The position numbers and the translations under genes are program-made. Shown here piece after piece: positions 35,651 through 58,413 of a stretch of DNA of 64,000 nt. Within the stretch, counting starts at the first letter, position 1. Every line of letters starts with the position of its first letter. The DNA is from Deltaproteobacteria bacterium (GTDB taxonomy: Bacteria > Desulfobacterota > Syntrophia > Syntrophales > UBA2210): assembly GCA_016930775.1 (NCBI GenBank), contig JAFGGB010000087.1, forward strand, positions 405 through 64,404, in the 5' to 3' direction. Below the pieces are notes generated by a model that was given only the letters and a program-made list of their open reading frames with translations, did no database searches and was not told where the DNA came from.

Positions 35651-36994
35651 TTGGAAACGATTTGGTTACATGCTATAGATATAATTCACAAAAATGTAAG
35701 TCAGCATCCTTTCGAAACCTGGATACGGCCCATCAAACTTGTTGCTATTGAAGGAACGAATGTGCAGCTGTCCGTTCCGAATATTTTTTTTAAAGACTGG
35801 CTTCGCGATAATTATCAAACAGTTATTCAGGGAGCGCTGGAATCTACGATGGGAATGCCCGTAACGATCAGTTTCGTCGTAGCAAAAGATGATCCGCTTC
35901 AAACAAGAGCGCAAATCAAACGTACAGCTGTCCACAAAGAACAAAAGAAAAAAAGAACCTCCATACATCCTTCTCTTAATTCTCACTATACATTTGATCG
36001 CTTTGTGGTCGGTTCCAGCAACCAGTTTGCCCATGCAGCCGCCACATCTGTTGCCGAACAGCCGGCAGCGAATTACAACCCTCTCTTTATTTACGGCGGC
36101 GTCGGTCTTGGAAAGACTCATCTCCTGAATGCCATCGGCATTCAAACAAACACGCTCTACCCGGAAAAGAATGTTCTCTATGTATCGGCTGAGGAATTCA
36201 TGAATGAGTTGATCAATTCCATTCGCTATGACAAAATGCCTTTGTTCCGGGAAAAATATAGGAATATCGATTCCTTGTTAATCGACGACATTCAGTTCAT
36301 CGCAGGGAAGGAACGAACGCAGGAGGAATTTTTCCATACGTTCAACACGCTTCATGATTCAGGCAAACAGATTGTCGTTACAAGCGATAAGTTTCCAAAG
36401 GAAATTCCCAATCTTGAAAAGAGACTCCGCTCACGATTTGAATGGGGTCTCATAGCGGACATACAACCTCCCGAAATAGAAACAAGAGTAGCTATTCTTG
36501 AAAAGAAGGCTCAGGAAAACAATATAGATATTCCAACTGCAGTGGCACACTACATTGCCTCCATCGCGGATTCCAATATCAGAGAATTGGAAGGAATTCT
36601 CACACGTGTCGCTGCATATTCTTCACTTACGGGCCGAATCATCGATATCGCTCTCGTTAAAGAGATCATAAAAAATATTTTAAGTCCAAGCAATACACGT
36701 AAGATAACCGTCGATATGGTCCTGAAAGCAGTGGCGTTAAAATTTAAAATAAAAATATCTGAGATTAAATCGGAGAAAAAAAATAAAAATCTTGTTCTTC
36801 CCCGCCAGATTGCCATGTATCTGTCCCGTTGTCTGACAGACGATTCTTTTCCGGATATCGGTATAAAAATGGGAGGAAGAGATCACTCGACGGTGATTTA
36901 CGCAAATAAAAAAATTTCCTCCTTACTTGAGCAAAATATTGAACTGAAATATACCGTCGAGGAAATTGAAGAGAGTCTGCACACCGGTGCCTAA
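35651..36994 (+). CDS. dnaA: chromosomal replication initiator DnaA
   Basis: 447 aa with a TTG start. FDRFVVGSSNQFAHAAA, Walker A GGVGLGKTHLL, LLIDDIQF and the domain IV motifs (LPRQIAMYL, GGRDHSTVIYA). Confidence 0.95.
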   Translation: METIWLHAIDIIHKNVSQHPFETWIRPIKLVAIEGTNVQLSVPNIFFKDWLRDNYQTVIQGALESTMGMPVTISFVVAKDDPLQTRAQIKRTAVHKEQKKKRTSIHPSLNSHYTFDRFVVGSSNQFAHAAATSVAEQPAANYNPLFIYGGVGLGKTHLLNAIGIQTNTLYPEKNVLYVSAEEFMNELINSIRYDKMPLFREKYRNIDSLLIDDIQFIAGKERTQEEFFHTFNTLHDSGKQIVVTSDKFPKEIPNLEKRLRSRFEWGLIADIQPPEIETRVAILEKKAQENNIDIPTAVAHYIASIADSNIRELEGILTRVAAYSSLTGRIIDIALVKEIIKNILSPSNTRKITVDMVLKAVALKFKIKISEIKSEKKNKNLVLPRQIAMYLSRCLTDDSFPDIGIKMGGRDHSTVIYANKKISSLLEQNIELKYTVEEIEESLHTGA

Positions 36995-37141
36995 ACATTC
37001 AATCACCGAGCATATTTCTTTTTTAATTAAAGTGAAACAGCGGCTTGCTGACAATTATCAACATATGAACAGGTCTTACTACTACTACTATTTATTTTTA
37101 TCTTAATTAGACTACAATAAAAGAACGAGGGGAACGACATT
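36995..37141. promoter_or_regulatory. candidate oriC / DNA-unwinding element between dnaA and dnaN
   Basis: One DnaA-box-like TTATCAACA (37055-37063). It is followed by a very AT-rich run (37076-37122) containing (TAC)4 and TATTTATTTTTATCTTAATTAG. No cluster of perfect boxes is present. Confidence 0.3.
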
Positions 37142-38260
37142 ATGAAATTTACAATTGAACGGAATGTCATTCTAATGGCGGTTCAAAAAACCTTGGGAAT
37201 TGTTGAACGAAAAACAACCATTCCGATTTTGAACAATATTCTTATAGAGGCCTTGGAATCATCGATACGTGTGGTTGCATCGGACCGTGAGATTGGCCTG
37301 CAGTCGAGCTACCCCGCCGATGTGGAAGTGAAGGGTTCGGTGACGGCGCCGGCCAAAAAATTAAGTGAGATGATACGGGAACTCTCCGGTGAAACGGTTG
37401 CGTTCGATGTGACCGACAACAACTGGATTACTGTCAGTAGCGGCACTGTGGTGTATCGCGTTCCGGGTTTGCCTGCATCAGAGTTTCCTGATGTAAAGTA
37501 TGATATAAGCGATATTTCAACAATACTGCCCTGTGATGTTCTTGGGAGAATGATTGCCCAGACGATTTTTGCCGTTTCATCCGATGATATGAGGCCGGTG
37601 CTGAATGGGGTCTATGTAATGTCGCCTGTCGAAGGATTTATTGAGATGGTTGCGACGGATGGACACAGGCTGTCGCTTGCGAAACGGTCCATTGCAGAAT
37701 CTGCGGAAAGCTTTATAGAGAAAGGAATAATAATTCCTCGGAAAGGTCTATCTGAGCTGAAGAAGCTTGTGGAAGACAATATAGGGAATGTTACATTGAG
37801 CGTTTCCAGGGGAATGCTCCTTGCCCATCGTGATGCAGCTGTTCTTGGCATCAGTCTGATTGACGGTGAATATCCCGATTACAAGAAGGTTATACCGGTT
37901 GACAAAGGCATTGAAATAGAGTTGCCAAGGATGATGATGCTTCAGGCGTTGCGACGAATGAGCGTCATGTCGAACGAACGGTTCAGTGGTGTGAGGATTA
38001 AGCTTCAGGAGGGAAAAATTATTCTGAATTCCATTAATCCTGGTGTCGGGGAGGCAACCGACGAGATCGGAATAGTTTATTCTGGGGATGTCGTAGAAGT
38101 AGGGTATAATGTTCGCTATCTGATTGATGCCATAGAGGGCGTCGACGACGAAAGGATATCTTTTGAAATGAGACCGGGAAGTGGGCCGGGTGTTGTGCGG
38201 TCTCTCGGAGAAGATAGTTACCTCTGCATCATTATGCCGATAAAACTGAGAACTGAGTAA
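37142..38260 (+). CDS. dnaN: DNA polymerase III beta sliding clamp
   Basis: 372 aa with a three-domain clamp pattern (MKFTIERN..., TILPILNNILIE, ATDGHRLS). Its position after dnaA fits. Confidence 0.93.
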   Translation: MKFTIERNVILMAVQKTLGIVERKTTIPILNNILIEALESSIRVVASDREIGLQSSYPADVEVKGSVTAPAKKLSEMIRELSGETVAFDVTDNNWITVSSGTVVYRVPGLPASEFPDVKYDISDISTILPCDVLGRMIAQTIFAVSSDDMRPVLNGVYVMSPVEGFIEMVATDGHRLSLAKRSIAESAESFIEKGIIIPRKGLSELKKLVEDNIGNVTLSVSRGMLLAHRDAAVLGISLIDGEYPDYKKVIPVDKGIEIELPRMMMLQALRRMSVMSNERFSGVRIKLQEGKIILNSINPGVGEATDEIGIVYSGDVVEVGYNVRYLIDAIEGVDDERISFEMRPGSGPGVVRSLGEDSYLCIIMPIKLRTE

Positions 38261-40684
<2,424 letters not shown>

Positions 40685-40782
40685 ACGAACTGACGATCGA
40701 GAAGTGCGATATATCTGCGGGCGCCGACGGGATTCTCGACGGTTCCCTTACTATCGACGAAGAAGCGGAGGAAAATCCTTAC

Positions 40783-43269
40783 ATGGATCAGGTCTTTCAG
40801 CGGAATATCCCTGTTAATATCGAAGATGAAATGAAGAAGTCCTATCTTGACTACGCCATGAGCGTTATCGTTGGTCGCGCAATACCGGACGCCCGCGACG
40901 GTCTCAAACCAGTCCATCGCAGGGCTCTTTATGCCATGTCGGAATTGGGGAACCGATGGAACAAGTCCTATAAGAAATCGGCTCGCATCGTCGGCGATAT
41001 CATTGGTAAATATCATCCCCACGGAGACTCTGCGGCCTACGATACGATCGTAAGGATGGCTCAGGATTTTTCGATGCGGTACCCATTGGTGGACGGCCAG
41101 GGCAACTTTGGTTCCGTGGACGGCGATCCTCCTGCGGCAATGCGGTACACGGAAATCCGCATGACCCGTTTCGCCGAGGAACTCCTGTCGGATATCGACA
41201 AGGATACTGTCGATTTCACGCCCAATTATGACGGCTCTCTTGTAGAGCCTCTTGTCATGCCGGCGAAGATCCCCGTTCTCCTGCTGAACGGCTCCTCCGG
41301 GATAGCTGTCGGCTTGGCCGGCAACATACCGCCTCACAACCTTACGGAAGTGGTGGACGGTCTCGTTGCCCTCATTAAAAATCCCGATCTTTCCATTGAA
41401 GAACTGATGCATTTCATCAAAGGTCCCGACTTTCCAACGGCAGGATTCATTAACGGTCGCCAGGGGATTATATCAGCCTACCGGACAGGCCGGGGCATCA
41501 TCAGGATACGGGCGCGGGCGCTGGTGGAACGAAATGCCAGGACGGATCGGGAGAGCATCATCGTCACGGAACTTCCCTATGCGGTTAACAAGGCCATGCT
41601 CATAGAGAAAATTTCCGATCTTGTCAGAGAAAAGAAGATCACCGGCATTGCCGACCTTCGGGATGAATCCGATCGAGATGGAATGCGCATCGTCATTGAC
41701 ATGAAGAAGGACGAGATACCGGCGATAATACTCAATCAGCTGTACAAGCACACGCAGATGGAGGCTACCTTCGGAATTATCATGCTTGCCATCTATGAAG
41801 GACAGCCAAAGGTCTTCAATCTGAAGGAAATACTCGAGAGCTTCATCATGTTCCGCAAGGTCGTGATTACGAGACGAACGTCCTACGAACTTGCCCGGGC
41901 TCGCGAACGACTCCACATTCTCGAGGGCTTCATCATTGCGCTCAACGGCATAGACGACGTAATCGCAGTTATCAAGGCGGCCGAAAATACTGCAGCTGCA
42001 GCAGCGGCTCTCATGCGGGAATTCGGACTTTCGGATATTCAGGCCAAGTCCATTCTGGACATGAAACTCCATCGTCTTACGGGCCTCGAACAGGACAAGA
42101 TCCGTGAGGAACATCGGGACACAGCTGCACTGGTCGTCCATCTCGAGGGAATTCTTGCAGATCCGCAAAAAATTCTCGACATCATCATGGAGGAACTTGA
42201 GGAGGTGAAGCGCCGATTCGGCGACGAGCGGCGCACGGAGATCGTAACGGACAGCGAGGAAATCGACATTGAAGACATGATTGTCGAGGAAGATATGGTG
42301 GTCACCATCTCCCACCAGGGATACATTAAGCGCAATCCCGTGAGCCTTTACCGGAGCCAGCTCCGCGGCGGCAGGGGCAAGGTGGGCATGGGCACGAAAG
42401 ACGACGACTTCGTGGAGCGGATTTTCATCGCCTCGACCCACAGTCACATTCTTTTCTTTACGAACAGCGGGCGCGTTTACTGGCTGAAGATCTATCAGAT
42501 TCCCCAGGCGGGAAGAGCCGCCAAGGGCAAGGCGGTAATCAACCTTATAGGCATTTCCCAGGATGAAAGGATTACGGCCGTTCTTCCCGTTAAGGAATTC
42601 ACGGAAGATCGTTACGTTATTATGGCCACGAAAGAGGGCATTATCAAGAAAACGGATCTTATGGCCTATTCTCATCCGCGGACCGGCGGAATTATCGCCC
42701 TGACTCTCGACGAGGGAGACGAACTGATCGACGTGAAACAGACCGACGGCAACCAGGAGATCCTCCTGGCCACCCGACAGGGCAATGCCATCCGGTTCAA
42801 GGAAGGAGATGTGCGTCCCGTGGGCAGAACCTCTCGAGGCGTTACAGGCGTCAGAATGGCAAGCGGCGACAGGGTCATCGGCATGGAGATTCTCAGCGAA
42901 GGAACGACAATACTTACTGTGTCGGACCGGGGATGTGGGAAGCGAACGGAAATCGACAAGTATCGTCTCCAGAGCCGGGGCGGCAAGGGAATCATAAACA
43001 TGAAAGTTACCCCGAAGGTGGGAATGGTTTCACGAGTGAAACTGGTCACGGGCGAGGAAGATATAATGCTCATCAGCAACTCGGGCAATATCATCAGACT
43101 GCACGTCGACAATATCCCCTCGCTAGGCCGCGGAACGCAGGGCGTCAAGCTTATTGATCTTGCCGCCGGAGAAATTCTCGTCGGTTGTGCGCGGGTAGAG
43201 CGCGAGGAGCCAGGCGTCGCCGATGCAGAGGAAGAGACAGGAGAGGACAACGCGCTCCTGGATATTTGA
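40783..43269 (+). CDS. gyrA: DNA gyrase subunit A
   Basis: [28 protein letters not shown], the QRDR region [13 protein letters not shown], the active-site AAMRYTE and C-terminal beta-pinwheel repeats. Confidence 0.97.
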
Positions 43270-43284
43270 AGAGACGCGAATATC

Positions 43285-43713
43285 ATGGCAGGAAAACCTT
43301 GCCTCTATCGCTTGATCGACCATACGGCAGATCTCGGCATGGAGGTTTGCGGGCGCGACCTTCGGGATCTCTTTTCCCGTGCGGGCAACGCCATGGTCGA
43401 TATGATGACCGATCGAAGCACCGCCTTTCCCAGGAACGAGCGAATCCTGAAAGCGACTGGAACGGACTGGACTGATCTTTTGATCGCTTTTCTGAGAGAA
43501 CTTCTGGCTCTCCATACCATCGAGGACTTCTTGCCTGTTGAATGTTCCGTTGATACAATAGCGCCGTACCGGCTGACTGCTCTGGTAAGAGGCGAGCCCT
43601 GTGATCCGTCGCGTCACCGGATCATCAGGGAAATCAAGGCCGTAACCTATCATGGCGCGGTGGTGGAAAAGACCGGCCGAAGGTGGCGAGGGCGGGTGAT
43701 CTTCGATGTCTGA
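43285..43713 (+). CDS. archease (RtcB activator)
   Basis: 142 aa with the hallmarks DHTADLG, IKAVTYHG and a C-terminal VIFDV. It overlaps the rtcB start by 8 nt. Confidence 0.88.
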   Translation: MAGKPCLYRLIDHTADLGMEVCGRDLRDLFSRAGNAMVDMMTDRSTAFPRNERILKATGTDWTDLLIAFLRELLALHTIEDFLPVECSVDTIAPYRLTALVRGEPCDPSRHRIIREIKAVTYHGAVVEKTGRRWRGRVIFDV

Positions 43714-45148
43714 AATACGATTGGAACGGCAGGATGAATACCGCTGGCTTATCCCCGTGGAGGGGAATATGCGGGTTCCCGGCCTTATTTACGCCAGCGA
43801 GGAGATGGTCCGGGGATTGACCGGAGACGAAAGTCCCCGGCAGGTTGCCAATGTGGCTGAACTTCCCGGCATCGTGAGATATTCCTTGGCCATGCCCGAC
43901 ATCCATTGGGGTTACGGTTTTCCTATCGGAGGCGTGGCCGCTTTCAATCGGGAGGAAGGCGTCGTGTCGCCGGGCGGCGTTGGCTATGATATCAATTGCG
44001 GTTGCCGCCTCGTAGCCACGAAGCTCTCCTTCGATGATATTCGCGAGAGAGTCCGCGATCTCGTATCGGCTCTTCTCAGAAACGTACCCACAGGCGTTGG
44101 TTCCACCGGTTCGATTAAGCTCTCGGGCCAGGAGGAACGGGCGGTTCTTGAGCAGGGCGCCCGGTGGGCCGTGAAAAACGGCTATGGATCGGTTGAAGAT
44201 CTGGACATGATGGAAGATGGAGGGTGTTTGCCCGGCGCCGATCCTGAGTGTATAAGCGATCGAGCCATGAAACGGGGCAAGGAACAACTGGGGACCCTGG
44301 GATCGGGCAATCATTTCCTGGAGATCGAGGTTGTGGATGAAATCTTTGATGAAGAAGCCGCGAGAGTTTTCGGGCTCTTCATCGGTCAGGTTGCCGTAAT
44401 GATCCACAGTGGTTCCCGGGGCTTAGGTTACCAGGTATGCGACGATTACCTTGCCAGGATGGTCAAAGGGATCGGGTCTCTGGGGTTTGAACTGCCGGAT
44501 CGCCAGCTCGCCTGCACCTACCTCTCGTCGTCCCTGGCCCGCGAGTATCTTGCCGCCATGGCCTGCGCAGCGAACTATGCCTGGGCCAACCGGCAGCTCC
44601 TCATGCACTGGACAGAGGAAACCTTCGAAAAGACCCTCGCGGCGTCGCCCAGGGATGTAGGCATGCGACTCGTCTATGACGTGTGCCACAATATAGCGAA
44701 GATGGAAGATTTTCCATTGGAAGAAGGAATGACAACGCTCTGTGTTCATCGAAAGGGCGCCACCAGGGCCTTTCCCCCGGGACACGAGGCTCTCTGTCGT
44801 CGCTATAGATCAATCGGTCAGCCCGTTCTGATTCCCGGAGACATGGGAACTGGGTCCTATGTACTGGCTGGTACGGACAAGGCCTTCAGGGAGACCTTCG
44901 GAAGCGCCTGTCACGGGGCAGGAAGGACGATGAGCAGAAATCAGGCAATGAAGACGAGCAGAGGCCGCTCTATCGGACAAGAGATGGCCAAACGGGGAGT
45001 CATCGTTATGGCGGCGGGGAAGACTACTCTTCAGGAAGAACTTCCCGAGGCGTATAAGGACGTGAATGAGGTAGTTGAGGTGGTTCACCGGGCGGGCTTG
45101 GCCAAAAAGGTGGCTAGACTCCGCGCCGTAGGCTGCATCAAGGGATGA
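43706..45148 (+). CDS. rtcB: RNA 3'-phosphate ligase RtcB
   Basis: MPDIHWGYGFPIGGV, GGVGYDINCG, GSGNHF, HSGSRGLG and HRKGATRA, plus the guanylyl-His region SACHGAGR. Confidence 0.95.
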   Translation: MSEIRLERQDEYRWLIPVEGNMRVPGLIYASEEMVRGLTGDESPRQVANVAELPGIVRYSLAMPDIHWGYGFPIGGVAAFNREEGVVSPGGVGYDINCGCRLVATKLSFDDIRERVRDLVSALLRNVPTGVGSTGSIKLSGQEERAVLEQGARWAVKNGYGSVEDLDMMEDGGCLPGADPECISDRAMKRGKEQLGTLGSGNHFLEIEVVDEIFDEEAARVFGLFIGQVAVMIHSGSRGLGYQVCDDYLARMVKGIGSLGFELPDRQLACTYLSSSLAREYLAAMACAANYAWANRQLLMHWTEETFEKTLAASPRDVGMRLVYDVCHNIAKMEDFPLEEGMTTLCVHRKGATRAFPPGHEALCRRYRSIGQPVLIPGDMGTGSYVLAGTDKAFRETFGSACHGAGRTMSRNQAMKTSRGRSIGQEMAKRGVIVMAAGKTTLQEELPEAYKDVNEVVEVVHRAGLAKKVARLRAVGCIKG

Positions 45149-45159
45149 GGAGACGCGCC

Positions 45160-46140
45160 ATGGAGGAACAGGATATGCCGAAGGATATCTACGACGTCGT
45201 CATCATTGGAGGCGGACCGGCCGGTTTCACTGCCGGGATCTATGCGGCGAGGTCGAAGTTGCGAACCATTCTGCTTGAGGGCTCTTCGACGGTCAGTCAG
45301 ATCACTGTAACCGATATTATTGAAAATTATCCAGGTGTTCCCGAGACAAGCGGTTTTGATCTTCTTGATGCGATGAAGCGTCAGGCCGGAGGATTCGGTC
45401 TCGCCGTTGCCCAGGAAACTGTATCGGCGTTGAAAGCCCAGGTTCAGGATGATTTTTCCCGATGGATAGTAGAGACGGAAAAACGCAGGTATGCGGCGCT
45501 TGCCGTTATTGTCGCAACGGGCGCTTCCTGGCGGAGAATCGGCGTGCCGGGGGAAGAAGAATTCATCGGTCGCGGCGTTTCTTTTTGTGCCACCTGCGAC
45601 GGTCCATTTTATAAGAATCGTGCTGTCGCAGTTGTGGGGGGAGGCGACACGGCGCTCCAGGAAGCCCTGTTCCTCACGAAATTTGCCAGTTCCGTAACGG
45701 TAATCCATCGCCGTGAACGTCTTCGAGCCACGGCGATTCTTCAGGAACGTGCTTCCGCAAATCCTAAAATCAACTTTGCCTGGAACGCCGTCGTGCAGGA
45801 GATACGGGGCGATCAGACAGTCCGGTCGCTGGTCCTGCAGGATCTCAAGGAAGGACCAGTGCGAGAGATTGCCGTCGATGGAGTGTTCATTTTCATCGGT
45901 CTCGAACCGGTGACGGCTGTGGTCAAGGACATTGTCAGGTGCGATGAGAGAGGGTATATTGTCACCGGCGACGACATGAAAACCTCGGCGCCCGGTATTT
46001 TCGCCTGCGGCGATTGCCGAAAAAAATCCCTTCGGCAGGTAATCACTGCGTGCGGAGACGGCGCCACGGCAGCTCATGGCGTCCAGTTGTATGTCGATGA
46101 GGTGCAGGGTCGATCCTACGGGGCCTGGCGCAGCCCCTGA
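45160..46140 (+). CDS. trxB: thioredoxin-disulfide reductase
   Basis: YDVVIIGGGPAGFTAGIYAAR, the CATCDG redox centre, VVGGGDTALQEALFL with HRRERLRA, and GIFACGDC. The ATG at 45160 follows GAGGAG. An alternative ATG at 45145 overlaps the rtcB stop (ATGA). Confidence 0.9.
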   Translation: MEEQDMPKDIYDVVIIGGGPAGFTAGIYAARSKLRTILLEGSSTVSQITVTDIIENYPGVPETSGFDLLDAMKRQAGGFGLAVAQETVSALKAQVQDDFSRWIVETEKRRYAALAVIVATGASWRRIGVPGEEEFIGRGVSFCATCDGPFYKNRAVAVVGGGDTALQEALFLTKFASSVTVIHRRERLRATAILQERASANPKINFAWNAVVQEIRGDQTVRSLVLQDLKEGPVREIAVDGVFIFIGLEPVTAVVKDIVRCDERGYIVTGDDMKTSAPGIFACGDCRKKSLRQVITACGDGATAAHGVQLYVDEVQGRSYGAWRSP

Positions 46141-46166
46141 AAGATTTTATTCTCCGGGAGGGCGCG

Positions 46167-46367
46167 ATGCCTATTTACGAATATGAATGCCGTTGCTGCG
46201 GCAATGAATTTGAGATGATACGATCTCTCAAGGATGATGATGCGGAGGTGGCCTGTCCCGCCTGCTCCGAAAAGAAGGCGCACAAGCGAATATCCCAGGT
46301 GGCAGGCGCCGGATCTTCCTGCGGTTCCTGTTCCAGCACAAGCTGCTCCTCGTCGGCCTCCGGTTGA
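46167..46367 (+). CDS. FmdB-family zinc-ribbon protein (CxxC_CxxC_SSSS)
   Basis: MPIYEYECRCCGNEFE ... CPACS, followed by a Ser/Cys-rich tail. Confidence 0.85.
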   Translation: MPIYEYECRCCGNEFEMIRSLKDDDAEVACPACSEKKAHKRISQVAGAGSSCGSCSSTSCSSSASG

Positions 46368-46455
46368 CGGTAGAGAATGCCGCCCGGAGGGCGGACGAAA
46401 AACGGATGGAACCTTCGTTACAAGCACCGGCAATAGAGAATGGCTTGGCGGATCT

Positions 46456-47289
46456 ATGGATCATTTAATTTCTATCTGGCAAGAACTGCCCCGGCACATC
46501 GATCCTGTTGCGCTGTCTATCGGGCCGCTGTCTATCAAGTACTACAGCCTCATGTACCTCGTTGCCTTCGGCATCACCTATGTCCTGGTGAACCGCCGTC
46601 TTGCCCGGGAGCCCTTCGCCATAAGCCCGAAAGTCCTTGAGGACCTTTTTCTCTGGTGCATCATAGGGCTTCTGGCTGGCGCCCGGGTAGGGTACGTCCT
46701 CTTCTATGATCCTCAACACTATCTACGGCGCCCGCTGGACGTAATTCTGCCCGTCCGGTTCGATGGAGGATTCCGTTTCACTGGCATCAGCGGCATGTCC
46801 TATCACGGGGGACTCCTCGGCATCATAGTTGTGGCGATTGTCTTTTGCCGACGGAACAATCTATCATTCTGGGATCTTGCAGATCTCTTCTGTCCGGCCA
46901 TACCCCTGGGATACACCTTCGGTCGATTGGGCAATTTTTTTAACGGCGAACTTTTCGGACGGGCAACCACCGTTTCCTGGGGGATGTATTTCCCTCTGGA
47001 TTCTGTAAACCGACTCAGGCACCCTTCCCAGCTCTATGAAGCGTTCTTCGAGGGACTGTTCCTTTTTGCCGTCCTCTGGTCGGTACGGAAGTTCCGTCCT
47101 TTTCCAGGCTTTTCGTTCGGACTGTATCTCATTTGCTACGGCACCGTGCGATTCGTGATCGAGTTCACACGTGAACCCGACAGTCAACTTGGCTTCGTAG
47201 CCGCCTTCCTGACAATGGGTCAGATTCTCTGTCTTGTCATGATCGCCGCCGGCGCCGTTATTCTGCTTAGGCCTGCCCGGTCTTCATAA
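46456..47289 (+). CDS. lgt: prolipoprotein diacylglyceryl transferase
   Basis: PVALSIGPLSIKYYSLMYLVAF, GMSYHGGLLG, FGRLGNFFNGELFGR and HPSQLYEA. The start is moved to the ATG at 46456 within track ORF 46234..47289. Confidence 0.9.
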   Translation: MDHLISIWQELPRHIDPVALSIGPLSIKYYSLMYLVAFGITYVLVNRRLAREPFAISPKVLEDLFLWCIIGLLAGARVGYVLFYDPQHYLRRPLDVILPVRFDGGFRFTGISGMSYHGGLLGIIVVAIVFCRRNNLSFWDLADLFCPAIPLGYTFGRLGNFFNGELFGRATTVSWGMYFPLDSVNRLRHPSQLYEAFFEGLFLFAVLWSVRKFRPFPGFSFGLYLICYGTVRFVIEFTREPDSQLGFVAAFLTMGQILCLVMIAAGAVILLRPARSS

Positions 47290-48881: not shown

Positions 48882-50720
48882 ATGGATTGCATTGAGAACA
48901 GAATTCTCATGGGGAACGAGGCCATCGGGCGGGGCCTCGTGGAGGCGGGATGTACGCTGGCGACTTCCTATCCGGGGACGCCGGCTTCAGAGGTTCTTGA
49001 ATCGGTTGTGGCCTTCGCCCGGGAAACGGGGGCGCCGGTTCATACTGAATGGTCCGTGAATGAGAAAGTGGCCTATGAGGTGGCGCTGGCAAACAGTTAC
49101 GCCGGAAAACGTTCCTCCGTTGCGATGAAGCAGGTTGGACTCAATGTTGCTTCGGACCCTTTCATGAGGTCGGCCTATCTCGGCGTCGTGGGAGGACTTG
49201 TAGTGGTTGTTGCCGACGACCCGGGGCCGCACAGTTCCCAGACAGAGCAGGACAGCCGGTTTTTTTCGCTTTTCGCTCATATCCCCGTATTCGATCCCTC
49301 GACGCCCGCCGAGGCGAAGGACATGGTGGAACGGGCCTTCTCTCTTTCCGAAGAATACGAACTCCCGGTGATGCTGAGACCGACAACCAGAGTATGTCAC
49401 GCCCGCCAGAATGTGATTTGCCGGGCGCCTCGGAGGCTCTCACGAAAAGCCTCCTTCGAAAAAAATCCTGCACGATGGGTGGCGACTCCCAGATATCTCA
49501 CAAAGCTCCACGGGCTGCTCAACGAGAAGGTGGAGGCGATCGCCCGGGATAAAAGTTTTTTGCCGACCCGTATTGCAGGCGACGGCAGCTTTGCCCGCCG
49601 ATGTATCATTGCTTCCGGCGTTGCCTATGCCAATGTACACGATCTCCTACGGGAAATGGGCGTCCTGGGCCGTATCGATTGCTACAAAGTAAACCTGCCG
49701 TATCCTCTGAACAGAGACTTTATCGAAACGATTGATCAACAGTACGACACTGTCATGGTCTTCGAGGAGACCTATCCGACCATCGAGTGCCAGCTTGCCG
49801 CCAGGGGTGTCCGGGGCCGGCGGACCAAGGATGTCCCCAACTGTGGCGAGCTGACGCCCGACATCATCGATGAGGTCCTGAGAAAGTTCCTGGGCCTTTC
49901 GCCGACGGCGAAAACAGAACCGGCGGCGCCAGGCGTGAGGCCGACGCTCTGCCCCGGCTGCCCCCACCGCGCTGCCTTTTTCGCCATCAGAGAAACGTTT
50001 CCCGATGGAATCTTTCCGAGCGACATAGGATGCTATACCTTGGGCATGAATTTCGGCGCTGTCGATACCTGCCATTGCATGGGCGCCTGCATCAGTCAGG
50101 GGGCGGGCTTTTATCATGCCTATTCCGCGGATGGCGGGGCGTTTCCCACGGTCGTCGTCACCATTGGAGATTCCACCTTTTTCCATGCCGGCATACCAGC
50201 TTTGGTGAATGCCGTTTTCTCGGGCGCCCGTATCATCGTAGTTATTCTCGACAACGGCACAACGGCCATGACGGGCAGTCAGCCGACGCCTCAAGTAGGC
50301 ATCAGGGCAGACGGAAGCCGGGGCCGGCGCGTTTTCATCGCTGATCTTGTCAGCGCATCCGGCGTGTCCTTCCTGCGCCGGTGCGATCCCTACGATATGG
50401 AGACCTTCAGGCATCATTTGATTGAGGCCGACGGGTACATACGAAGCAACGATGGCGGAGTGGCCGTAATAATTGCCGAACATCCCTGCATCCTGGATCG
50501 CGATTCCATGAAGAATCAGACCTTTTATGAAATGACAGTAGAGGATTCCTGCGTGGGCTGCAGGATCTGCATCAATACATTTGAATGTCCCGGCCTTGTT
50601 TTTGACGAAGGAACGAAAAAGGCAGTCATTGCCGACGGCGTTTGCATCGGCTGCGGCGTCTGTTCGACCGCCTGTCCTGTGGGTGCTATTTCGGCGGATA
50701 GTCGGAGCGAAAGTATATGA
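48882..50720 (+). CDS. iorA: indolepyruvate:ferredoxin oxidoreductase alpha subunit
   Basis: 612 aa. N-terminus LMGNEAIGRGLVEAGCTLATSYPGTPASE, then a TPP-binding region (GDSTFFHAG) and two C-terminal 4Fe-4S motifs (CVGCRICINTFECP, CIGCGVCSTACP). Confidence 0.9.
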   Translation: MDCIENRILMGNEAIGRGLVEAGCTLATSYPGTPASEVLESVVAFARETGAPVHTEWSVNEKVAYEVALANSYAGKRSSVAMKQVGLNVASDPFMRSAYLGVVGGLVVVVADDPGPHSSQTEQDSRFFSLFAHIPVFDPSTPAEAKDMVERAFSLSEEYELPVMLRPTTRVCHARQNVICRAPRRLSRKASFEKNPARWVATPRYLTKLHGLLNEKVEAIARDKSFLPTRIAGDGSFARRCIIASGVAYANVHDLLREMGVLGRIDCYKVNLPYPLNRDFIETIDQQYDTVMVFEETYPTIECQLAARGVRGRRTKDVPNCGELTPDIIDEVLRKFLGLSPTAKTEPAAPGVRPTLCPGCPHRAAFFAIRETFPDGIFPSDIGCYTLGMNFGAVDTCHCMGACISQGAGFYHAYSADGGAFPTVVVTIGDSTFFHAGIPALVNAVFSGARIIVVILDNGTTAMTGSQPTPQVGIRADGSRGRRVFIADLVSASGVSFLRRCDPYDMETFRHHLIEADGYIRSNDGGVAVIIAEHPCILDRDSMKNQTFYEMTVEDSCVGCRICINTFECPGLVFDEGTKKAVIADGVCIGCGVCSTACPVGAISADSRSESI

Positions 50721-51232
50721 ATCAGCAAATTATCATCAGCGGGCTTGGGGGACAGGGCATCCTGTTTCTTACAAAACTCCTAGCCCAGGCGGCCATGGAC
50801 AGCGGGAACGATGTAATTACCTCGGAAACCCACGGCATGGCCATGAGAGGAGGAACCGTTGTCTCTCACGTAAAGATCGGTTCCTTCCTGAGCCCCCTTA
50901 TCAGAACCGGACAAGCGGACATGGGGTTTTTCCTGACGGCGGGCAGCTTTGAAATTCATAGAGCGTTCCTCCGCGAAGGGGCGCCTGCCGTTATCAATAC
51001 ACCCAGGACCGATGGACCATTCGCAATCGATGCCGCTGCCATCGCCCGCGAGGCGGGAGCTCGTATGGCAACAAACCTGGTTCTTCTTGGTTTCGCCGTT
51101 AAACGAGACCTGCCTTTCTGCACAGTTTCCATCATGAGGGAGGCCATAGGACGGCTGTCTCCCTCTCGACATAGACAGATGAATATTGAGGGCTTTGAAC
51201 GGGGATTAAACTATGAAGGAGGTGCATCATGA
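50717..51232 (+). CDS. iorB: indolepyruvate:ferredoxin oxidoreductase beta subunit
   Basis: IIISGLGGQGILFLTKLLAQAAM ... SETHGMAMRGGTVVSHVKIG is typical of the gamma-like domain of 2-oxoacid:ferredoxin oxidoreductases. A 4-nt ATGA overlap links it to iorA. Confidence 0.88.
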   Translation: MNQQIIISGLGGQGILFLTKLLAQAAMDSGNDVITSETHGMAMRGGTVVSHVKIGSFLSPLIRTGQADMGFFLTAGSFEIHRAFLREGAPAVINTPRTDGPFAIDAAAIAREAGARMATNLVLLGFAVKRDLPFCTVSIMREAIGRLSPSRHRQMNIEGFERGLNYEGGAS

Positions 51233-52251
51233 AGATGCGCGTGCTGTGTCCATTGTTAGCAGTGTTACTGATTGCAAGTGCTGTTGTTGTGCCGCAACCG
51301 GTCGCGGCCGGTCCTCTAACGCTGACCTATGCCAACTTTCCTCCAGCTTCCACGTTTCCCTGCGTCCAGATGGAACGGTGGAAAACAGAGGCGGAAAAAC
51401 GGACCGACCGGGCCGTCCAGATTCAGACCTTTCCGGGCGGCACGCTTTTGGGAGCGAAGAATATGCTCGATGGAGTCATCTCCGGTCAGGCTGATATCGG
51501 CTGCTTTGCCATGTCATACCATCCCGGACGATTTCCCGTTCTTGAAGTGGTCGACCTCCCGCTGGGATGGTCTAACGCCACAGTTGCCAGTCTTGCCCTC
51601 TGGGATCTTTACAACCAGTACCAGCCGGAATCGCTTAGCAAGGTGAAGGTTCTGACTCTTTTTACATGCCCTCCGGCAAACATTATGTCCATCAAGCCGG
51701 TCAGAACGATTGATGATCTGAAGGGTTTCGAAATCAGGGCTGCCGGAACGGGCGTCAAAGTCTTTGAGCTGCTGGGAGCGGCGCCCATCGGAATGCCCCA
51801 GTCAGACGTTCCCGACGCCCTTCACCGAGGCGTCATTCAGGGCATGGCCTCTTCACTGGAGGTTATGAAAGATTTCAAATATGCCGAGTACTGCCGTTTC
51901 ATAACCATGACGAACCTCCAGGTCGTCACCTTCGGCGTGGTAATGAATCTTGACCGCTGGAAAACTCTTCCCGAAAAGACCCAGGCTGCACTGAACTCTT
52001 TGGGCCGCGAGCAGGCGGAGTGGACGGGCCGGTATGTGGATGACCATGTAACCGAAGCCGTGGCTTGGTCGAAGAAGACCTATAACGTGGAGGTCATCTC
52101 ATTGTCCCCCGGCGATCGGGAGCGAATGGACCAGCTCTTGAAGCCCCTGGTTGACGGATATATAGCACGGGTTGGATCGTCGATTCCGGGAGAAAAAATC
52201 GTTAAAGACGTGATCGCCCTGAAGAAACGCTACGAGCGAACAGTGAAATAA
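51229..52251 (+). CDS. dctP: TRAP transporter substrate-binding protein (DctP family)
   Basis: A signal peptide followed by the DctP-like pattern (LTYANFPPAS..., GVISGQADIG). It overlaps the iorB stop by 4 nt and is followed by dctQM. Confidence 0.8.
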   Translation: MKMRVLCPLLAVLLIASAVVVPQPVAAGPLTLTYANFPPASTFPCVQMERWKTEAEKRTDRAVQIQTFPGGTLLGAKNMLDGVISGQADIGCFAMSYHPGRFPVLEVVDLPLGWSNATVASLALWDLYNQYQPESLSKVKVLTLFTCPPANIMSIKPVRTIDDLKGFEIRAAGTGVKVFELLGAAPIGMPQSDVPDALHRGVIQGMASSLEVMKDFKYAEYCRFITMTNLQVVTFGVVMNLDRWKTLPEKTQAALNSLGREQAEWTGRYVDDHVTEAVAWSKKTYNVEVISLSPGDRERMDQLLKPLVDGYIARVGSSIPGEKIVKDVIALKKRYERTVK

Positions 52252-52275
52252 GGGTCGTTCAAAGGGAGATCTGCG

Positions 52276-52779
52276 ATGAATAAGATAATTCGAGGCCTCG
52301 ACGGTCTCATCGATTCTGTGAACAAAGCACTCATGGCGTCGGCAGGCGTTCTGCTCATTGCCATGGTTTGCCTTGCCACACTGAACGTAATCTTACGCAA
52401 AGCAGGCTTTCCCATGAATGGCGCCTTTGAAATCATGGGCTTTTTCGGCGCCCTCGTGGCATCCTTCGCGATGGGACAGACGCTGAAGGCAGGCGAGCAT
52501 ATCGCTATTGACGTGATCGTGAAGATGCTGCCGCGTGTGGTGCAAAGGATTTTTTTGACAGCAAACGACATCGTTTCCGCAGTCTTTTTCGGATTAGCCG
52601 CATGGAAGATCATTGTGTTGGGAACAAACCTCTGGAGAGTGAACGATCTTTCGGAGACACTGCGGATCCCCTACTTTCCCTTTCTTTACGGCGTCGCTTT
52701 CGGGAGCATTGTCATGACCCTGATGATTATCGTGGAAGGGGCTAAACGATTCGTGCCCCCGGGGGAGGTGAAACCATGA
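52276..52779 (+). CDS. dctQ: TRAP transporter small permease (DctQ)
   Basis: 167 aa with 4 TM helices, positioned between dctP and dctM. Confidence 0.8.
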   Translation: MNKIIRGLDGLIDSVNKALMASAGVLLIAMVCLATLNVILRKAGFPMNGAFEIMGFFGALVASFAMGQTLKAGEHIAIDVIVKMLPRVVQRIFLTANDIVSAVFFGLAAWKIIVLGTNLWRVNDLSETLRIPYFPFLYGVAFGSIVMTLMIIVEGAKRFVPPGEVKP

Positions 52780-54080
52780 CCTATTCCATTGTTGGTCTTG
52801 GGGGAATAGGACTCTTGATGGTTTTGCTCCTCCTCTTGGGAATGCCCGTTGGTTTCGCCATGGGGATCGTGGGCGTTGGAGGAATGGCGCTGATCGTGTC
52901 AGGGACGGCGGCGACCGCAATGCTGGGCACGGAGATGTGGAACATCTTTTCTTCCTACGGACTCACCATGATACCTCTCTTTATTCTCATGGGTGAAATC
53001 TGTTTCTATTCCGGTCTTAACCGGCGGCTCTTCAAAGCGACGCATACAGTTGCAGGGCATATTCGAGGCGGTCTTGCCATTGCCACGATCGCCGCCTGCG
53101 CGGGTTTTGCGGCTATCTGCGGTTCAAACACCGCCACGGCGGCGACTATGACGACAGTGGCGTTGCCGGAGATGAGAAAGTATCGGTACGAACCGGCCCT
53201 TTCTCTGGGGGCCATAGCCTGCGGTTCGACGCTGGGCGTCGTGATTCCGCCCAGCGTTGTCCTCATTATTATAGGGCTCTATACGGGACAATCGATCAGC
53301 AAGCTCTTCTATGGCGGCATACTCGCCGGACTGTTGTTGGCGGCTCTGTTTATGATTACCGTCTTCGTTCTCTGCTCAATAAAGCCGGAACGGAGTCCTG
53401 TGGCGAATCACTACAGTCTGCGGGAAAAGATTCGCGCCCTGCCCGGCTTCCTTGAAGCGCTTATTCTTTTTCTCCTGGTCATCGGCGGTCTCTATTCCGG
53501 ATTCTTCACACCCACGGAGGCGGGCGCCGTGGGATCCTTCCTGGCGCTGGTCATGGCCATGGGGCGGCGAAAGATCACATGGCAGGGATTCAAGACTGCC
53601 GTGGCGGAGACCCTGGAGATCTCTTGCATGGTCTTTGTCATTATTGCCGGCGCAGTTATGTTCAGTCGCTTCCTTGCAGTGACGCGGCTTCCTTTTACAG
53701 TTGCTGAATGGGTTGGGTCCCTGCCAGTTCCTCCCGTCGCAGTGCTCTCGGTAATCTTTGTCATCTATATTTTGGGCGGCGCAATTATGGACGCCCTTGC
53801 ATTTCTTCTGATAACGATTCCCATTTTTTTCCCTGTAGTTGAGAAACTTGGATACGATCCTCTGTGGTTCGGCGTCACGATCACAGTAATCACCACGCTC
53901 GGCGCCGTTACGCCCCCTGTAGGGGCAACGACCTACGTTGTGGCCGGCATGGCCAAGGACGAATCGATGACCACAGTTTTCAAGGGCATCTTCTATTTTC
54001 TGCCGGCCTATCTGCTCTGTGTCATTCTACTGGTAGCCTTTCCGTCTATTGTTACATACCTTCCGAATCTTGTACGTTAA
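52776..54080 (+). CDS. dctM: TRAP transporter large permease (DctM)
   Basis: 434 aa and polytopic. The motif AAICGSNTATAATM is typical of DctM. It overlaps dctQ by 4 nt. Confidence 0.88.
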   Translation: MTYSIVGLGGIGLLMVLLLLLGMPVGFAMGIVGVGGMALIVSGTAATAMLGTEMWNIFSSYGLTMIPLFILMGEICFYSGLNRRLFKATHTVAGHIRGGLAIATIAACAGFAAICGSNTATAATMTTVALPEMRKYRYEPALSLGAIACGSTLGVVIPPSVVLIIIGLYTGQSISKLFYGGILAGLLLAALFMITVFVLCSIKPERSPVANHYSLREKIRALPGFLEALILFLLVIGGLYSGFFTPTEAGAVGSFLALVMAMGRRKITWQGFKTAVAETLEISCMVFVIIAGAVMFSRFLAVTRLPFTVAEWVGSLPVPPVAVLSVIFVIYILGGAIMDALAFLLITIPIFFPVVEKLGYDPLWFGVTITVITTLGAVTPPVGATTYVVAGMAKDESMTTVFKGIFYFLPAYLLCVILLVAFPSIVTYLPNLVR

Positions 54081-55146: not shown

Positions 55147-56769
55147 ATGCGGGCAGATGACTTGCAGCGCCTTGAATTAATCGACATCGACTCCGTTTCA
55201 GGGTTTCCTTTCCTCGGCTCCCACAGGTTAATGGTTTTCAGCACGGCATCCCTGGGGCGTCTGAGGAAAGATCTCCAACGGGCCATAGGCCCGGAGCAAA
55301 CGAAGGTCATTCTCGCCCGGCACAGTTACGAAACCGGAATGGTTATGGCGATGGCCATAGGCGAACTCTATGAGTTTGATACGCCGGAAGAATGGCTGAA
55401 GGCGGGAAGCCGCATACGGACCATGGCTGGGCTGGCTCACGAACATATCGAGACGATATCTCTCGACAAGGAAACAAAGAGGTTATGCTTCCAGGGCACA
55501 TGGCAAGATTCTTTCGAAGTTCATATATGGAAGGAAAGCTTTGGCGTAAGCGCCGAATCCATATGCGTTATGCTTGCGGGCATGCTCAGCGGCTACGCAA
55601 GCACCGTTATGGGCGCCGAAGTCCTGGTTAGAGAACTGGCCTGTCAGGCGCAAGGCGAATCTCTCTGCCGTTTCGAGGGGCGGACAGTAGCCGAGTGGGG
55701 ACTCACGTCCGAGGAGGTGCAAGCCGTTTTCGCCGTCGGACCCATTGGCGAAGAACTAGTCTCTTTGAAGGCGGCGTTGCTGAAGGCCAACGATGAACTG
55801 GATCTTCAACACAGGCAGATTCAACGGCTCAAGCAGCTGGCTTACCGGCGGGAGCTCAAGGAAGATATAATTTTTCGGAGCGAATCCATGGCGAAAACTC
55901 TTATGCTAGCCGAAAAAGTGGCGCCGTCGGCTTCCACTGTTCTCATCCTGGGAGAAAGCGGTACGGGCAAGGAGGTTCTGGCCAAATTCATCCACCGTAA
56001 TTCCGGCAGAAAGGACCGCCCATTCCTGGCGATAAACTGCGCCGCACTGCCTCCAAACCTTCTGGAATCGGAGCTTTTCGGCCATCTGAAAGGATCATTT
56101 ACGGGGGCTGACAGGGACAAGAGGGGCCTGTGCGTTGAGGCCGGCGAAGGCACGCTCTTTCTCGACGAGGTTGGGGAGGTCCCCCTGGAGATGCAAGCGA
56201 AACTCCTCAGAGTTCTCCAGGAAAAGAGGATAAGGCCCGTCGGTGGAGTCCGAGACATTCCCGTGACCGCCAGGATCATTGCAGCAACGAACAGAAACCT
56301 TCACGAGATGGTTCAGCAGGGCGCTTTTCGAGAAGATCTCTATTATCGTCTAGCTGTATTTCCTGTAATTGTAATGCCTCTCAGGGATCGTCGCCAGGAT
56401 ATATTGCTCCTGGCGAGACATTTTCTCTCTCGATTGAAAAAGATTCATCGGGGCTTTTCACCGGAGAGCGTTCGTATGCTTGAGGCATACTCGTGGCCCG
56501 GAAATGTGCGTGAGCTGGAGAACTGGATGGAATATGCCGTTATAATGGCCGGCGACGATCTGATCAGACCCGAGCACTTTCCCCTGGCGCCGTTCGGCGA
56601 GGGCGGCTCTTTCAACGACTTGACGGCCGATTATCCTTCGCTCGATGAGCTGGCGCAACGGTATATATCAAGAGTGCTCGGTCATACGGGCGGAAACAAA
56701 CGAGAGGCGGCCCGGATACTCGGCATAGGCGCCAGCACCCTCTGGCGGAGGCTAAAGAATACTCCCTGA
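55147..56769 (+). CDS. sigma-54-dependent activator with XylR-N/V4R-type effector domain
   Basis: The N-terminal ~200 aa resemble XylR/DmpR sensor domains and end in the V4R-like [13 protein letters not shown]. These are followed by the AAA+ core ([26 protein letters not shown]) and a C-terminal HTH. Confidence 0.85.
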
Positions 56770-56783
56770 AAGGAGCGCATGAT

Positions 56784-58115
56784 ATGGCGAAAAGGCTTGT
56801 CATAGTCGGAGGAGGTGCCGGCGGCCCTTCGATGGCGGCGGAGGCGAAACGGAGAGACCCCTCCCTGGATATCATTATGATTGAACAAGGCGAATACGTA
56901 TCCTATGCGGCCTGACCGATGCCCTATTACATCGGTGATGTAATAGGCGATTCGTCTCTGCTGGTGGCTCGTACCCCCGAGGAGTTTGAAAAATCGGGAA
57001 TTCGAGTGATGCTGAATACATCGGTGGAGTCTATAGATCTGAACAAGAAGGTTGTTGCTCTGGCGGACGAGCGCCGGATACCCTTTGATCTTCTTGGCGT
57101 GGCAACGGGTTCGACCGCTCATTTTCCCGCCATTCCCCTGGATGTTCGTGACGGTGTTTTTGTCTTGAAAAATTTAAACGACGGCCTTGCCCTGAAGAGC
57201 TACATAACAAAAAAGTCTTGCCGCAGGGTTCTCGTTGTCGGAGCGGGCTTCATTGCCATGGAACTCTGCGAGGCTTTCAGGAATCTTGATCTAGAAACGG
57301 TGATTGTTCATCGGGGCGATCGTCCGGTGGCGCGGTGGGATCCTGAATTAACCCAACTAATCGTAAAAACTATCGAAACCAACGGAGTATCCTTCATGAC
57401 GGGAAGGACGGCAAGTGCCGTGGAAGGCAGGAACGGCAGGATCCGTCTACTCACCGATAAAGAATCCTTTGAAGGCGATCTCGTCGTTTTCGCTGCGGGC
57501 GTCCGGCCGAACACTGCGGTGGCGAAAGCAGCGGGGATTGAAATAGGAGCTACAGGCGCCATAAAGGTGGACGCCCTCCAACGAGCCTCAAGCGAGTCTG
57601 TTTTTGCCGTCGGTGATTGCAGCGAGGCCTATCACCGCATCAGCAAGAAGTGGGTCAATCTGCCTTTGGGAGACGTGGCAAACAAACAGGGACGGGTGGC
57701 TGGTCGAGTAGCCGCAGGTCTTTCCGCTGCCTTCCCGGGCGTTGTCGGTTCGCAGGCTTTCAAGGTCTTTAATCTCGAAGCGGCAGCTACGGGACTCACG
57801 GAAGAGGAAGCCGCATCTAGCGGGTTCAAGGTTGCGGCAGTGACGCTCTGGGGGTCGCCGATGGCCCACTCCATGAGCAAAGGCCGAAAACTGGGTCTGA
57901 AGCTTGTGGCAGACAGCAGGACAGGGAAATTGCTGGGAGCGCAGGCCGTCGGTCACGGCGGCGCCTGGGCTCGCATCAACATGCTTTCCGTCTGCTTGTG
58001 GGCAGATCTTTCCATTGATGAATTGATGTTTATGGACATGGCCTATGCTCCACCCTTCGGCGGGGCTTGGGATCTTGTCCACGTAGCAGCCCAGCAGCTG
58101 GCTAAACGACTGTAG
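56784..58115 (+). CDS. CoA-disulfide reductase / NADH oxidase-family flavoprotein with in-frame TGA (candidate selenocysteine) at the active-site Cys position
   Basis: The ATG at 56784 (after AAGGAG) opens MAKRLVIVGGGAGGPSMAAEAKRRDPSLDIIMIEQGEYVSYAA, then TGA (56913-56915), then PMPYYIGDV... This is in frame with track ORF 56919..58115. The family motif is S-F/Y-x-x-C-x-x-P-Y, and the TGA sits exactly where that Cys would be. The total of 443 codons matches the family's usual length. Confidence 0.75.
56923..56947 (+). other. SECIS-like stem-loop downstream of the in-frame UGA
   Basis: CCTATTACATC-GGT-GATGTAATAGG is a perfect 11-bp stem with a GGU apical loop. It starts 7 nt after the UGA, and the loop lies 19-21 nt downstream of it. 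Confidence 0.65.
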
Positions 58116-58125
58116 AGCGAGACCA

Positions 58126-58413
58126 ATGCACTGCTGTTATCGATGCGGAAATTTATACGAAAGCTCTTTACCCGTGAGCAGGCGGGATCGATGCGACGAT
58201 TGCGGGTCTGACCTTCGGATTTGTCGTAACTGTATCTTTTTTGAAGAGACAGCGTACAACAGCTGCCGGGAAACCCAGGCTGAACGTGTTATCGAAAAAG
58301 ACAGGGCAAATTTCTGTGAATATTTCCGTTGGAGAGAAGGCCCTCTGTCAAAACGACAGGAAGGAGGGATCAATGATTTCCGAAAAAAAGCGGAGGCGTT
58401 CTTTAAAAAATGA
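58126..58413 (+). CDS. small Cys-rich (zinc-ribbon-like) protein, unknown function
   Basis: 95 aa with CCYRCG, CDDCG, CRNC, C..C-like spacing and ANFCEYF. It starts 10 nt after the candidate selenoprotein gene. Confidence 0.5.
   Translation: MHCCYRCGNLYESSLPVSRRDRCDDCGSDLRICRNCIFFEETAYNSCRETQAERVIEKDRANFCEYFRWREGPLSKRQEGGINDFRKKAEAFFKK

Follow-up and report, generated by a model that had tools for sequence, protein, structure and literature searches.

The window analyzed here, a 64,000-nucleotide stretch of contig JAFGGB010000087.1 from a deltaproteobacterium of the order Syntrophales, carries at positions 56784-58115 of the forward strand a gene for a flavoprotein related to CoA-disulfide reductases (CoADR) and NADH oxidases (Nox). 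As judged from comparison with its relatives, this region is almost certainly a single gene of 443 residues that has been mis-split by annotation, with an in-frame TGA coding for selenocysteine (Sec) at the catalytic position, and we hold it to be very probable that the gene is a genuine Sec-encoding gene. The observations on which this assignment is built are the continuity of the gene across the TGA, the correspondence of Sec and Cys at the same aligned position, the constraint on a downstream hairpin at the RNA level, and the agreement of this hairpin with the consensus of bacterial selenocysteine insertion sequence (SECIS) elements.

Structure and annotation of the gene

Direct reading of the sequence places a Shine-Dalgarno sequence AAGGAG at 56770-56775 (forward strand), 8 nt upstream of the ATG at 56784. 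This ATG opens 43 sense codons (56784-56912) encoding MAKRLVIVGGGAGGPSMAAEAKRRDPSLDIIMIEQGEYVSYAA, which contain the GGGAGG of the FAD (flavin adenine dinucleotide)-binding beta-alpha-beta fold, are conserved upstream of the TGA in relatives, and are omitted from the enzyme by the open reading frame (ORF) track. They are followed by the in-frame TGA at 56913-56915, after which 399 further codons remain open in the same frame, ending with the TAG stop codon at 58113-58115. Translation of 56784-58115 gives a read-through product of 443 residues with Sec at residue 44, and no frame disruption other than the TGA was found in this interval. The program-made ORF list cuts the gene in two, 56784-56915 (43 residues) and 56919-58115 (398 residues), the second part beginning at the ATG of Met46 (56919-56921), a false start chosen by ORF callers. 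The same mis-call is seen in contigs of relatives, as adjoining genes of 43 and 399 residues. The original prediction had described the start codon with its Shine-Dalgarno sequence, the 43 in-frame codons, the single TGA and the truncation of the gene at 56919; all of these coordinates held on re-reading, and 36 homologues in the database proved to be cut short in the identical way.

The TGA and the hairpin that follows it were found unchanged in contigs X3, X4 and X5, which come from three independent public assemblies of a strain approximately 99% identical, and for this reason the TGA is not an assembly error. Since TGA also terminates 30 of the 59 long ORFs of the window, UGA has not been reassigned in the genetic code of this organism.

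Protein family and catalytic position

In the read-through protein, Pfam identified the domains Pyr_redox_2 (residues 4-287, spanning the TGA), Pyr_redox (148-218) and Pyr_redox_dim (325-428). The architecture of Pyr_redox_2 and Pyr_redox_dim with an N-terminal GxGxxG is present only if the 43 upstream codons are counted. End-to-end matches in the PDB were obtained to the Thermus NADH oxidase 6ruz (1e-98), A. fulgidus NoxA-3 6pfz and P. horikoshii CoADR 4fx9, with E values ranging from 1e-98 to 1e-74. Codon 44 aligns without gaps with C48 of 4fx9, C44 of 6ruz and the corresponding Cys of 6pfz, and C48 of the P. horikoshii enzyme is its catalytic cysteine (PMC6026696). The alignment therefore puts Sec at the catalytic-Cys position of a COG0446/TIGR03385-type flavoprotein, just where the UGA had been proposed to replace the redox-active Cys of CoADR and NADH oxidases. 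By these matches, the predicted gene product belongs with the single-cysteine flavoproteins that depend on FAD and NAD(P)H and comprise CoADR, NADH oxidases and persulfide reductases.

The best-scoring NCBIfam families are CoADR equivalogs, yet the scores lie below their curated cut-offs (375.5 against 458 and 363 against 578.8 for NF007123/TIGR03385). The score for the H2O-forming NADH oxidase family NF046103 was 235, likewise below its cut-off of 600.

Sec and Cys forms among relatives

The database comparison took in the best 120 homologues. Full-length proteins accounted for 84 of them, mostly with the sequence ...SYAACPMPYYIGD..., and the other 36 are proteins of 398-400 residues, each beginning exactly at MPYYIGDV, like the ORF at 56919. 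An alignment of homologues had been proposed as a check on the correspondence of Cys and Sec; in this alignment Cys occupies the codon-44 position in 84 of the 84 full-length close homologues.

At the DNA level, 80 species-representative genomes were compared, nearly all of them metagenome-assembled genomes (MAGs) of Syntrophales, Syntrophaceae or Smithella. An in-frame TGA at codon 44 was found in 71 of the 80 species-level loci, and TGT or TGC clearly in 4. In the 71 TGA loci, an N-terminus of about 43 codons starting from ATG precedes the TGA and is conserved as protein with synonymous variation. A second genome scan, in which the peptide was fixed and every synonymous site was left degenerate, yielded at least 153 distinct sequences with TGA, and 7 others with the same peptide but a Cys codon. 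The GxGxxG motif lies in frame upstream of the TGA in 146 of the 153 TGA forms, which belong mostly to Syntrophales/Smithellaceae, with some MAGs of Acidobacteriota and Syntrophobacterales. Purifying selection on both sides of the TGA was detected in 124 full-length TGA-form genes. The locus thus presents the pattern by which selenoprotein genes are recognized, namely an in-frame UGA aligned with the Cys of homologues, with conservation on both sides. At the protein level, MPYYIGDV is invariant in the Sec forms, whereas it occurs in 24 variants among the 84 Cys forms.

Several loci deserve separate mention. L043 (CAYWTL010000013.1) and L199 (DHHR01000032.1) are TGC orthologues in which the whole hairpin core is intact; from their sequences they appear to have changed from Sec to Cys recently, leaving a fossil SECIS. 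SelA is also encoded in the MAG of L043 (L212, CAYWTL010000003.1). In L065 (positions 2240 and 4130), the TGA form is preceded, at a distance of about 1.9 kb, by a canonical Cys paralogue (...SFANCGLPYYVGG...). Two loci on different contigs were found in MAG JAPLJM01 (L013 and L056, both TGA forms) and in MAG CAZODI01 (L024 and L151, with the TGA confirmed for L024).

The putative SECIS hairpin

Seven nucleotides (CCGAUGC) after the TGA, the sequence CCUAUUACAUC (56923-56933) is followed by the loop GGU (56934-56936) and by GAUGUAAUAGG (56937-56947), which together form a hairpin with 11 Watson-Crick pairs at 56923-56947 of the forward strand. The spacing between the UGA and the loop is 18 nt, and the hairpin alone has a folding energy of -12.4 kcal/mol. 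The bacterial SECIS (bSECIS) model asks for an apical loop of 3-9 nt, an upper stem of 4-16 bp, a G at loop position 1 or 2, a distance of 16-37 nt from the UGA to the loop and a minimum free energy of -7.5 kcal/mol or lower (PMC13188914); the window hairpin, with a loop of 3 nt, G at both positions and a stem of 11 bp, agrees with every one of these values. A 61-nt context of the hairpin folds with -23.8 kcal/mol (z = -2.9), and 3 of 200 shuffled sequences fold equally well. The folding energy by itself is suggestive, exceeding chance only moderately, and the decisive evidence is comparative.

This evidence comes from the codons of the stem. Among the 153 TGA forms, Tyr48 is TAT in 152, and Tyr49, Ile50, Asp52 and Val53 are TAC, ATC, GAT and GTA, respectively, in all 153. 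The 19-nt core AUUACAUC-GGN-GAUGUAAU (56926-56944, forward strand), which comprises the codons for YYIGDVI, is invariant in 153 of 153 TGA forms save for the third base of the loop. That base is free (U in 81, C in 53, G in 15 and A in 4), and the flanking Pro CCN and Ile54 ATH codons vary too. In a codon-threaded alignment of the 124 full-length TGA-form genes, 100 columns hold a conserved amino acid with degenerate codons; zero codon entropy was found solely at the TGA and the five stem codons, the next lowest value being 0.32 bits and the median 1.6 bits. Where the identical peptide occurs in Cys forms, the stem sites are not fixed (GTA in 3 of 7, GAT in 5 of 7), and four of these forms, L025, L029, L063 and L099, have lost the hairpin. 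Three features point to pairing within the stem: the perfect inverted repeat, the constraint that fixes the stem and leaves the loop base free, and the linkage to the TGA. The invariance of MPYYIGDV in the Sec forms, as opposed to its variation in the Cys forms, argues that the RNA element constrains the peptide too.

The perfect 11-bp stem with its GGU loop, the RNA constraint on the synonymous sites of its codons and its bacterial SECIS geometry had all been put forward in the original prediction, and each was found again here, with one correction concerning the extent of the stem. The family-wide element is the 8-bp core AUUACAUC/GAUGUAAU with its GGN loop (136 of 153 sequences). The length of 11 bp, the longest seen, is peculiar to the window and is due to ATA-GGC at codons 54-55.

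Over the whole window, no Rfam match reached the gathering thresholds, and a permissive scan of 56850-57010 gave noise far below threshold; no sign of an Rfam model for such an element was found.

A 44-nt segment (56901-56944), containing the TGA and the SECIS core, is matched by sediment-metagenome contigs of many other organisms, with word depths of about 300-860. The contigs that share it diverge on either side, and contigs of the organism itself tend to break there (the start of one is at 56915, the end of another at 56940). The segment behaves like a short repeat shared between genomes, at which assemblies of the selenoprotein gene break up, and the gene is often fragmentary in part because this ultra-conserved segment breaks metagenome assemblies.

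Proposed mechanism

In the proposed mechanism, the UGA at 56913-56915 would encode Sec in place of the catalytic cysteine, and the hairpin core formed by the YYIGDVI codons would act as its SECIS. SelB would compete with release factor 2 at the UGA and deliver Sec, so that the ribosome would read through to produce the full-length enzyme. The selenolate of residue 44 would then adjoin the flavin as the redox centre. From the selenolate, the residue may pass either to a mixed Se-S selenosulfide, with CoA or a persulfide as partner, or to a selenenic acid, and NAD(P)H would re-reduce it via FAD. CoA disulfide, per- or polysulfide, and O2 or H2O2 are candidate physiological oxidants.

Selenium machinery in the window and in relatives

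ARAGORN detected no tRNA in the 64-kb window and no tRNA-Sec in 1.6 Mb of retrieved loci, and tblastn searches with SelA and SelB gave no matches in the window or in any of the TGA-form loci. Scanning the window for further genes interrupted by TGA gave no convincing case, so that a second selenoprotein is not available there as internal support. S. aciditrophicus is reported to have 19 selenoproteins, including SelD (PMC1794560). With the SelA of S. aciditrophicus as a probe, in a search that reached close relatives only, SelA was found in 13 MAGs of Syntrophales/Smithella. The assemblies with both a SelA match and the gene locus are OY762510 and CAYWTL01 only, and both carry Cys forms, so the SelA search has no bearing on genomes with a TGA form. 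For Sec decoding in this organism the support is indirect but strong: it comes from S. aciditrophicus, from the SelA of Syntrophales and Smithella MAGs, and from the upkeep of TGA and hairpin in more than 150 species, for which another explanation is difficult to find. In the literature library searched, no publication was found that links Syntrophales with selenoproteins.

Evaluation of the Sec assignment

Several results weigh against the assignment of Sec or limit what can be said of the enzyme. The genes selA, selB, selC and selD were found neither within the 64-kb window nor in the flanks of the TGA-form loci, and no reads on the gene came from two RNA-seq runs that bear the same organism code. 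Regarding the hairpin, the 8-bp family core alone is AU-rich and weak (-5.2 kcal/mol), and only 61% of the family members reach -7.5 kcal/mol over positions +6 to +39. The stem shows no covariation, as it never varies among the 153 TGA forms. A SECIS model with a bulge and a lower stem was also tried and rejected, since covariation was absent (p = 0.19) and the paired fraction did not exceed that of a shifted register. As to function, the NCBIfam scores lie below the CoADR equivalog cut-offs, and substrate specificity in the single-Cys CoADR/Nox group is not readable from sequence (PMC6026696); for both reasons, the protein was filed as a CoADR/Nox-like selenoprotein with no assigned substrate.

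The lack of sel genes in the window and in the flanks of the TGA forms speaks for another reading, in which a near-cognate or suppressor tRNA would insert Cys or Trp at the UGA at 56913, be it at all times or under selenium shortage, and the hairpin would merely slow termination; with Cys at site 44 the enzyme would be normal, like the 84 homologues of the Cys form. We consider this quite unlikely. The hairpin matches the SelB-type bSECIS consensus exactly, the homologous position is Sec in a catalogued selenoprotein, and the Syntrophales are rich in selenoproteins and possess SelA. Moreover, the TGA and the frozen hairpin have been kept in more than 150 species, where a single T/C change would give Cys, and a benefit specific to Sec is argued from this. 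That the inverted repeat is instead a DNA-level or other regulatory element with no role in Sec insertion, such as a protein-binding palindrome or a pause site, appears highly improbable. Such an element would account for a stem that is invariant even where a G-U wobble would keep the pairing (Y49 UAC, I50 AUC, V53 GUA), which has the look of conserved sequence more than of conserved structure. But the conservation is tied to the TGA, since the same-peptide Cys forms L025, L029, L063 and L099 lose the repeat, the apparent recent converts L043 and L199 being excepted; within the 19-nt core only the last base of the loop is free, as a hairpin predicts; and both position and loop fit the bSECIS model.

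The existing annotation, in which the TGA ends an upstream peptide of 43 residues and the enzyme consists of 398 residues from the ATG at 56919, is what gene callers give here and in relatives, and this ATG is indeed located 3 nt after the TGA. The resulting protein would, by Pfam and PDB homology, have neither the GxGxxG FAD-binding fold nor the catalytic residue (residues 4-44), whereas in more than 120 species the 43 codons before the TGA encode a conserved peptide in the same frame while their synonymous sites vary; in addition, codon 46 is Thr, Leu or Ile in some TGA forms, which would leave them without a start at this place. This gene model is very unlikely. Least probable of all, with a nearly negligible chance, is a pseudogene or a sequencing or assembly error in a Cys-form gene. 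One TGY-to-TGA change would suffice to produce it, but the TGA occurs in three independent assemblies and in 153 orthologous sequences, the frame is otherwise intact, and purifying selection acts on either side of the TGA. A Sec codon with its own SECIS thus stands as the preferred explanation of the locus.

Genomic neighbourhood

In relatives, the gene order is gyrA, AsmA, archease, RtcB, thioredoxin-reductase-like, Zn-ribbon and Lgt, followed by the genes of 43 and 399 residues. In the window, gyrA, archease, RtcB, the thioredoxin-reductase-like gene and Lgt are followed, after about 9.5 kb, by a XylR-like gene and the selenoprotein gene. From this shared gyrA-archease-RtcB-thioredoxin reductase-Lgt neighbourhood, the window gene is taken to be the positional orthologue of the gene in relatives.

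The cluster of archease, RtcB, the thioredoxin-reductase-like flavoprotein and Lgt downstream of gyrA (43285-47289 in the window; 1364-5869 in L205-L208) is common to the window and its relatives, and in the latter it runs directly into the selenoprotein gene. The gap between lgt and the selenoprotein gene in the window contains, at 48882-54080, ORFs that are not found at that position in relatives. A partial identification of these ORFs gave an AMP-binding enzyme, membrane-transporter-like ORFs, an alpha/beta hydrolase, and a pair of 612 and 171 residues that is indolepyruvate:ferredoxin oxidoreductase-like by N-terminal sequence only. A regulator with XylR_N, V4R, sigma-54-activator and HTH_8 domains (55147-56769, forward strand) ends 14 nt before the ATG of the selenoprotein gene. 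Only in the window does this regulator adjoin the gene; relatives have lgt at that place.

An ORF of 95 Cys-rich residues (MHCCYRCG...CDDCG...CRNC..., 58126-58413, forward strand) begins 11 nt after the stop codon of the selenoprotein gene. No Pfam or NCBIfam match was obtained for it; tblastn found relatives in 12 related loci, the closest of them, at 47% identity, lying some 1.6 kb downstream from the orthologue in L062. This ORF might be a zinc-ribbon-like partner. A scan for promoters and terminators gave background level only.

Further upstream, ORFs with dnaA-, dnaN-, gyrB- and gyrA-like N-termini stand in a row at 35651-43269, and the cumulative GC skew has its minimum at about 36 kb. 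The identities of these genes rest on N-terminal sequences and on gyrA Pfam hits in a syntenic relative. The window probably spans the chromosomal replication origin.

Comparison with known systems

Sec forms of the NADH oxidase/CoA-disulfide reductase family, whose predicted occurrence in some deltaproteobacteria had been mentioned in the original prediction, are documented in this group (PMC1794560, PMC1976440, PMC9312934). Catalogues of selenoproteins list the Sec-containing "NADH oxidase/CoA-disulfide reductase" as a family with the motif UGxP, represented in G. metallireducens and an Olavius symbiont; by 2006 just one Sec form had come to light, and S. aciditrophicus SB had been classed with the Cys forms. 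The Geobacter metallireducens Sec NADH oxidase and the window protein share superfamily, domain architecture and anaerobic hosts of the deltaproteobacterial type. In both, Sec lies at the same aligned position (...HTSFSAUGIPYYVG... in Geobacter, SYAAUPMPYYIG here), and both are usually mis-annotated as truncated genes. On the other hand, the window protein is 36% identical to it over the full length, its motif is UPMP and not UGxP, with Pro at +3 retained and Gly at +1 changed to Pro, and the UPMP clade is a large one of at least 153 distinct sequences. With the solved single-Cys CoADR, persulfide-polysulfide reductase and Nox structures (6ruz, 6pfz, 4fx9), the predicted protein has in common full-length homology, the aligned catalytic residue, FAD and NAD(P)H binding and the dimerisation domain, but these enzymes have Cys where Sec is predicted here.

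As in bacterial SECIS elements of the E. coli fdhF type and in the bSECISearch consensus, the hairpin lies in the coding region just 3' of the UGA, with a small loop starting with GG, a spacing of 18 nt and adequate stability. It differs from them in that the loop of the window version is minimal (3 nt), a bulge and lower stem are unsupported, and no Rfam model matches it. Also unlike them, the sequence in the UPMP clade is unusually frozen across more than 150 species, with an AU-rich core that is weak in most members.

Significance

By sequence, the UPMP gene is a new member, and arguably a distinct large subfamily, of a known selenoprotein family rather than a new kind of system. A further idea, that the Syntrophales-centred UPMP clade is an independently evolved and undescribed Sec subfamily of CoADR-like enzymes with a SECIS frozen at the nucleotide level, is offered tentatively and seems to us rather doubtful. 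If it were true, it would imply that SelB recognition is sequence-specific and not merely structural, or that the element has a second function; it would also imply a tight co-constraint that freezes PYYIGDVI beside the active site as well.

The practical value of these results lies in annotation, given that an ORF of 43 residues and an N-terminally truncated "FAD-dependent oxidoreductase" of 398 or 399 residues are what gene calling makes of the window gene, of about 150 genomic orthologues and of no fewer than 36 database proteins. Current understanding of Sec decoding is unchanged by them; they provide a very clean natural case of a SECIS in a coding region that constrains both the synonymous sites and the downstream peptide. 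The selenoprotein family first known from one Geobacter sequence is now enlarged. Syntrophales are key syntrophic degraders of fatty acids and aromatic compounds in anoxic sediments and digesters, and among the closest orthologues sampled in this order, the hidden selenoenzyme appears to be the prevalent form.

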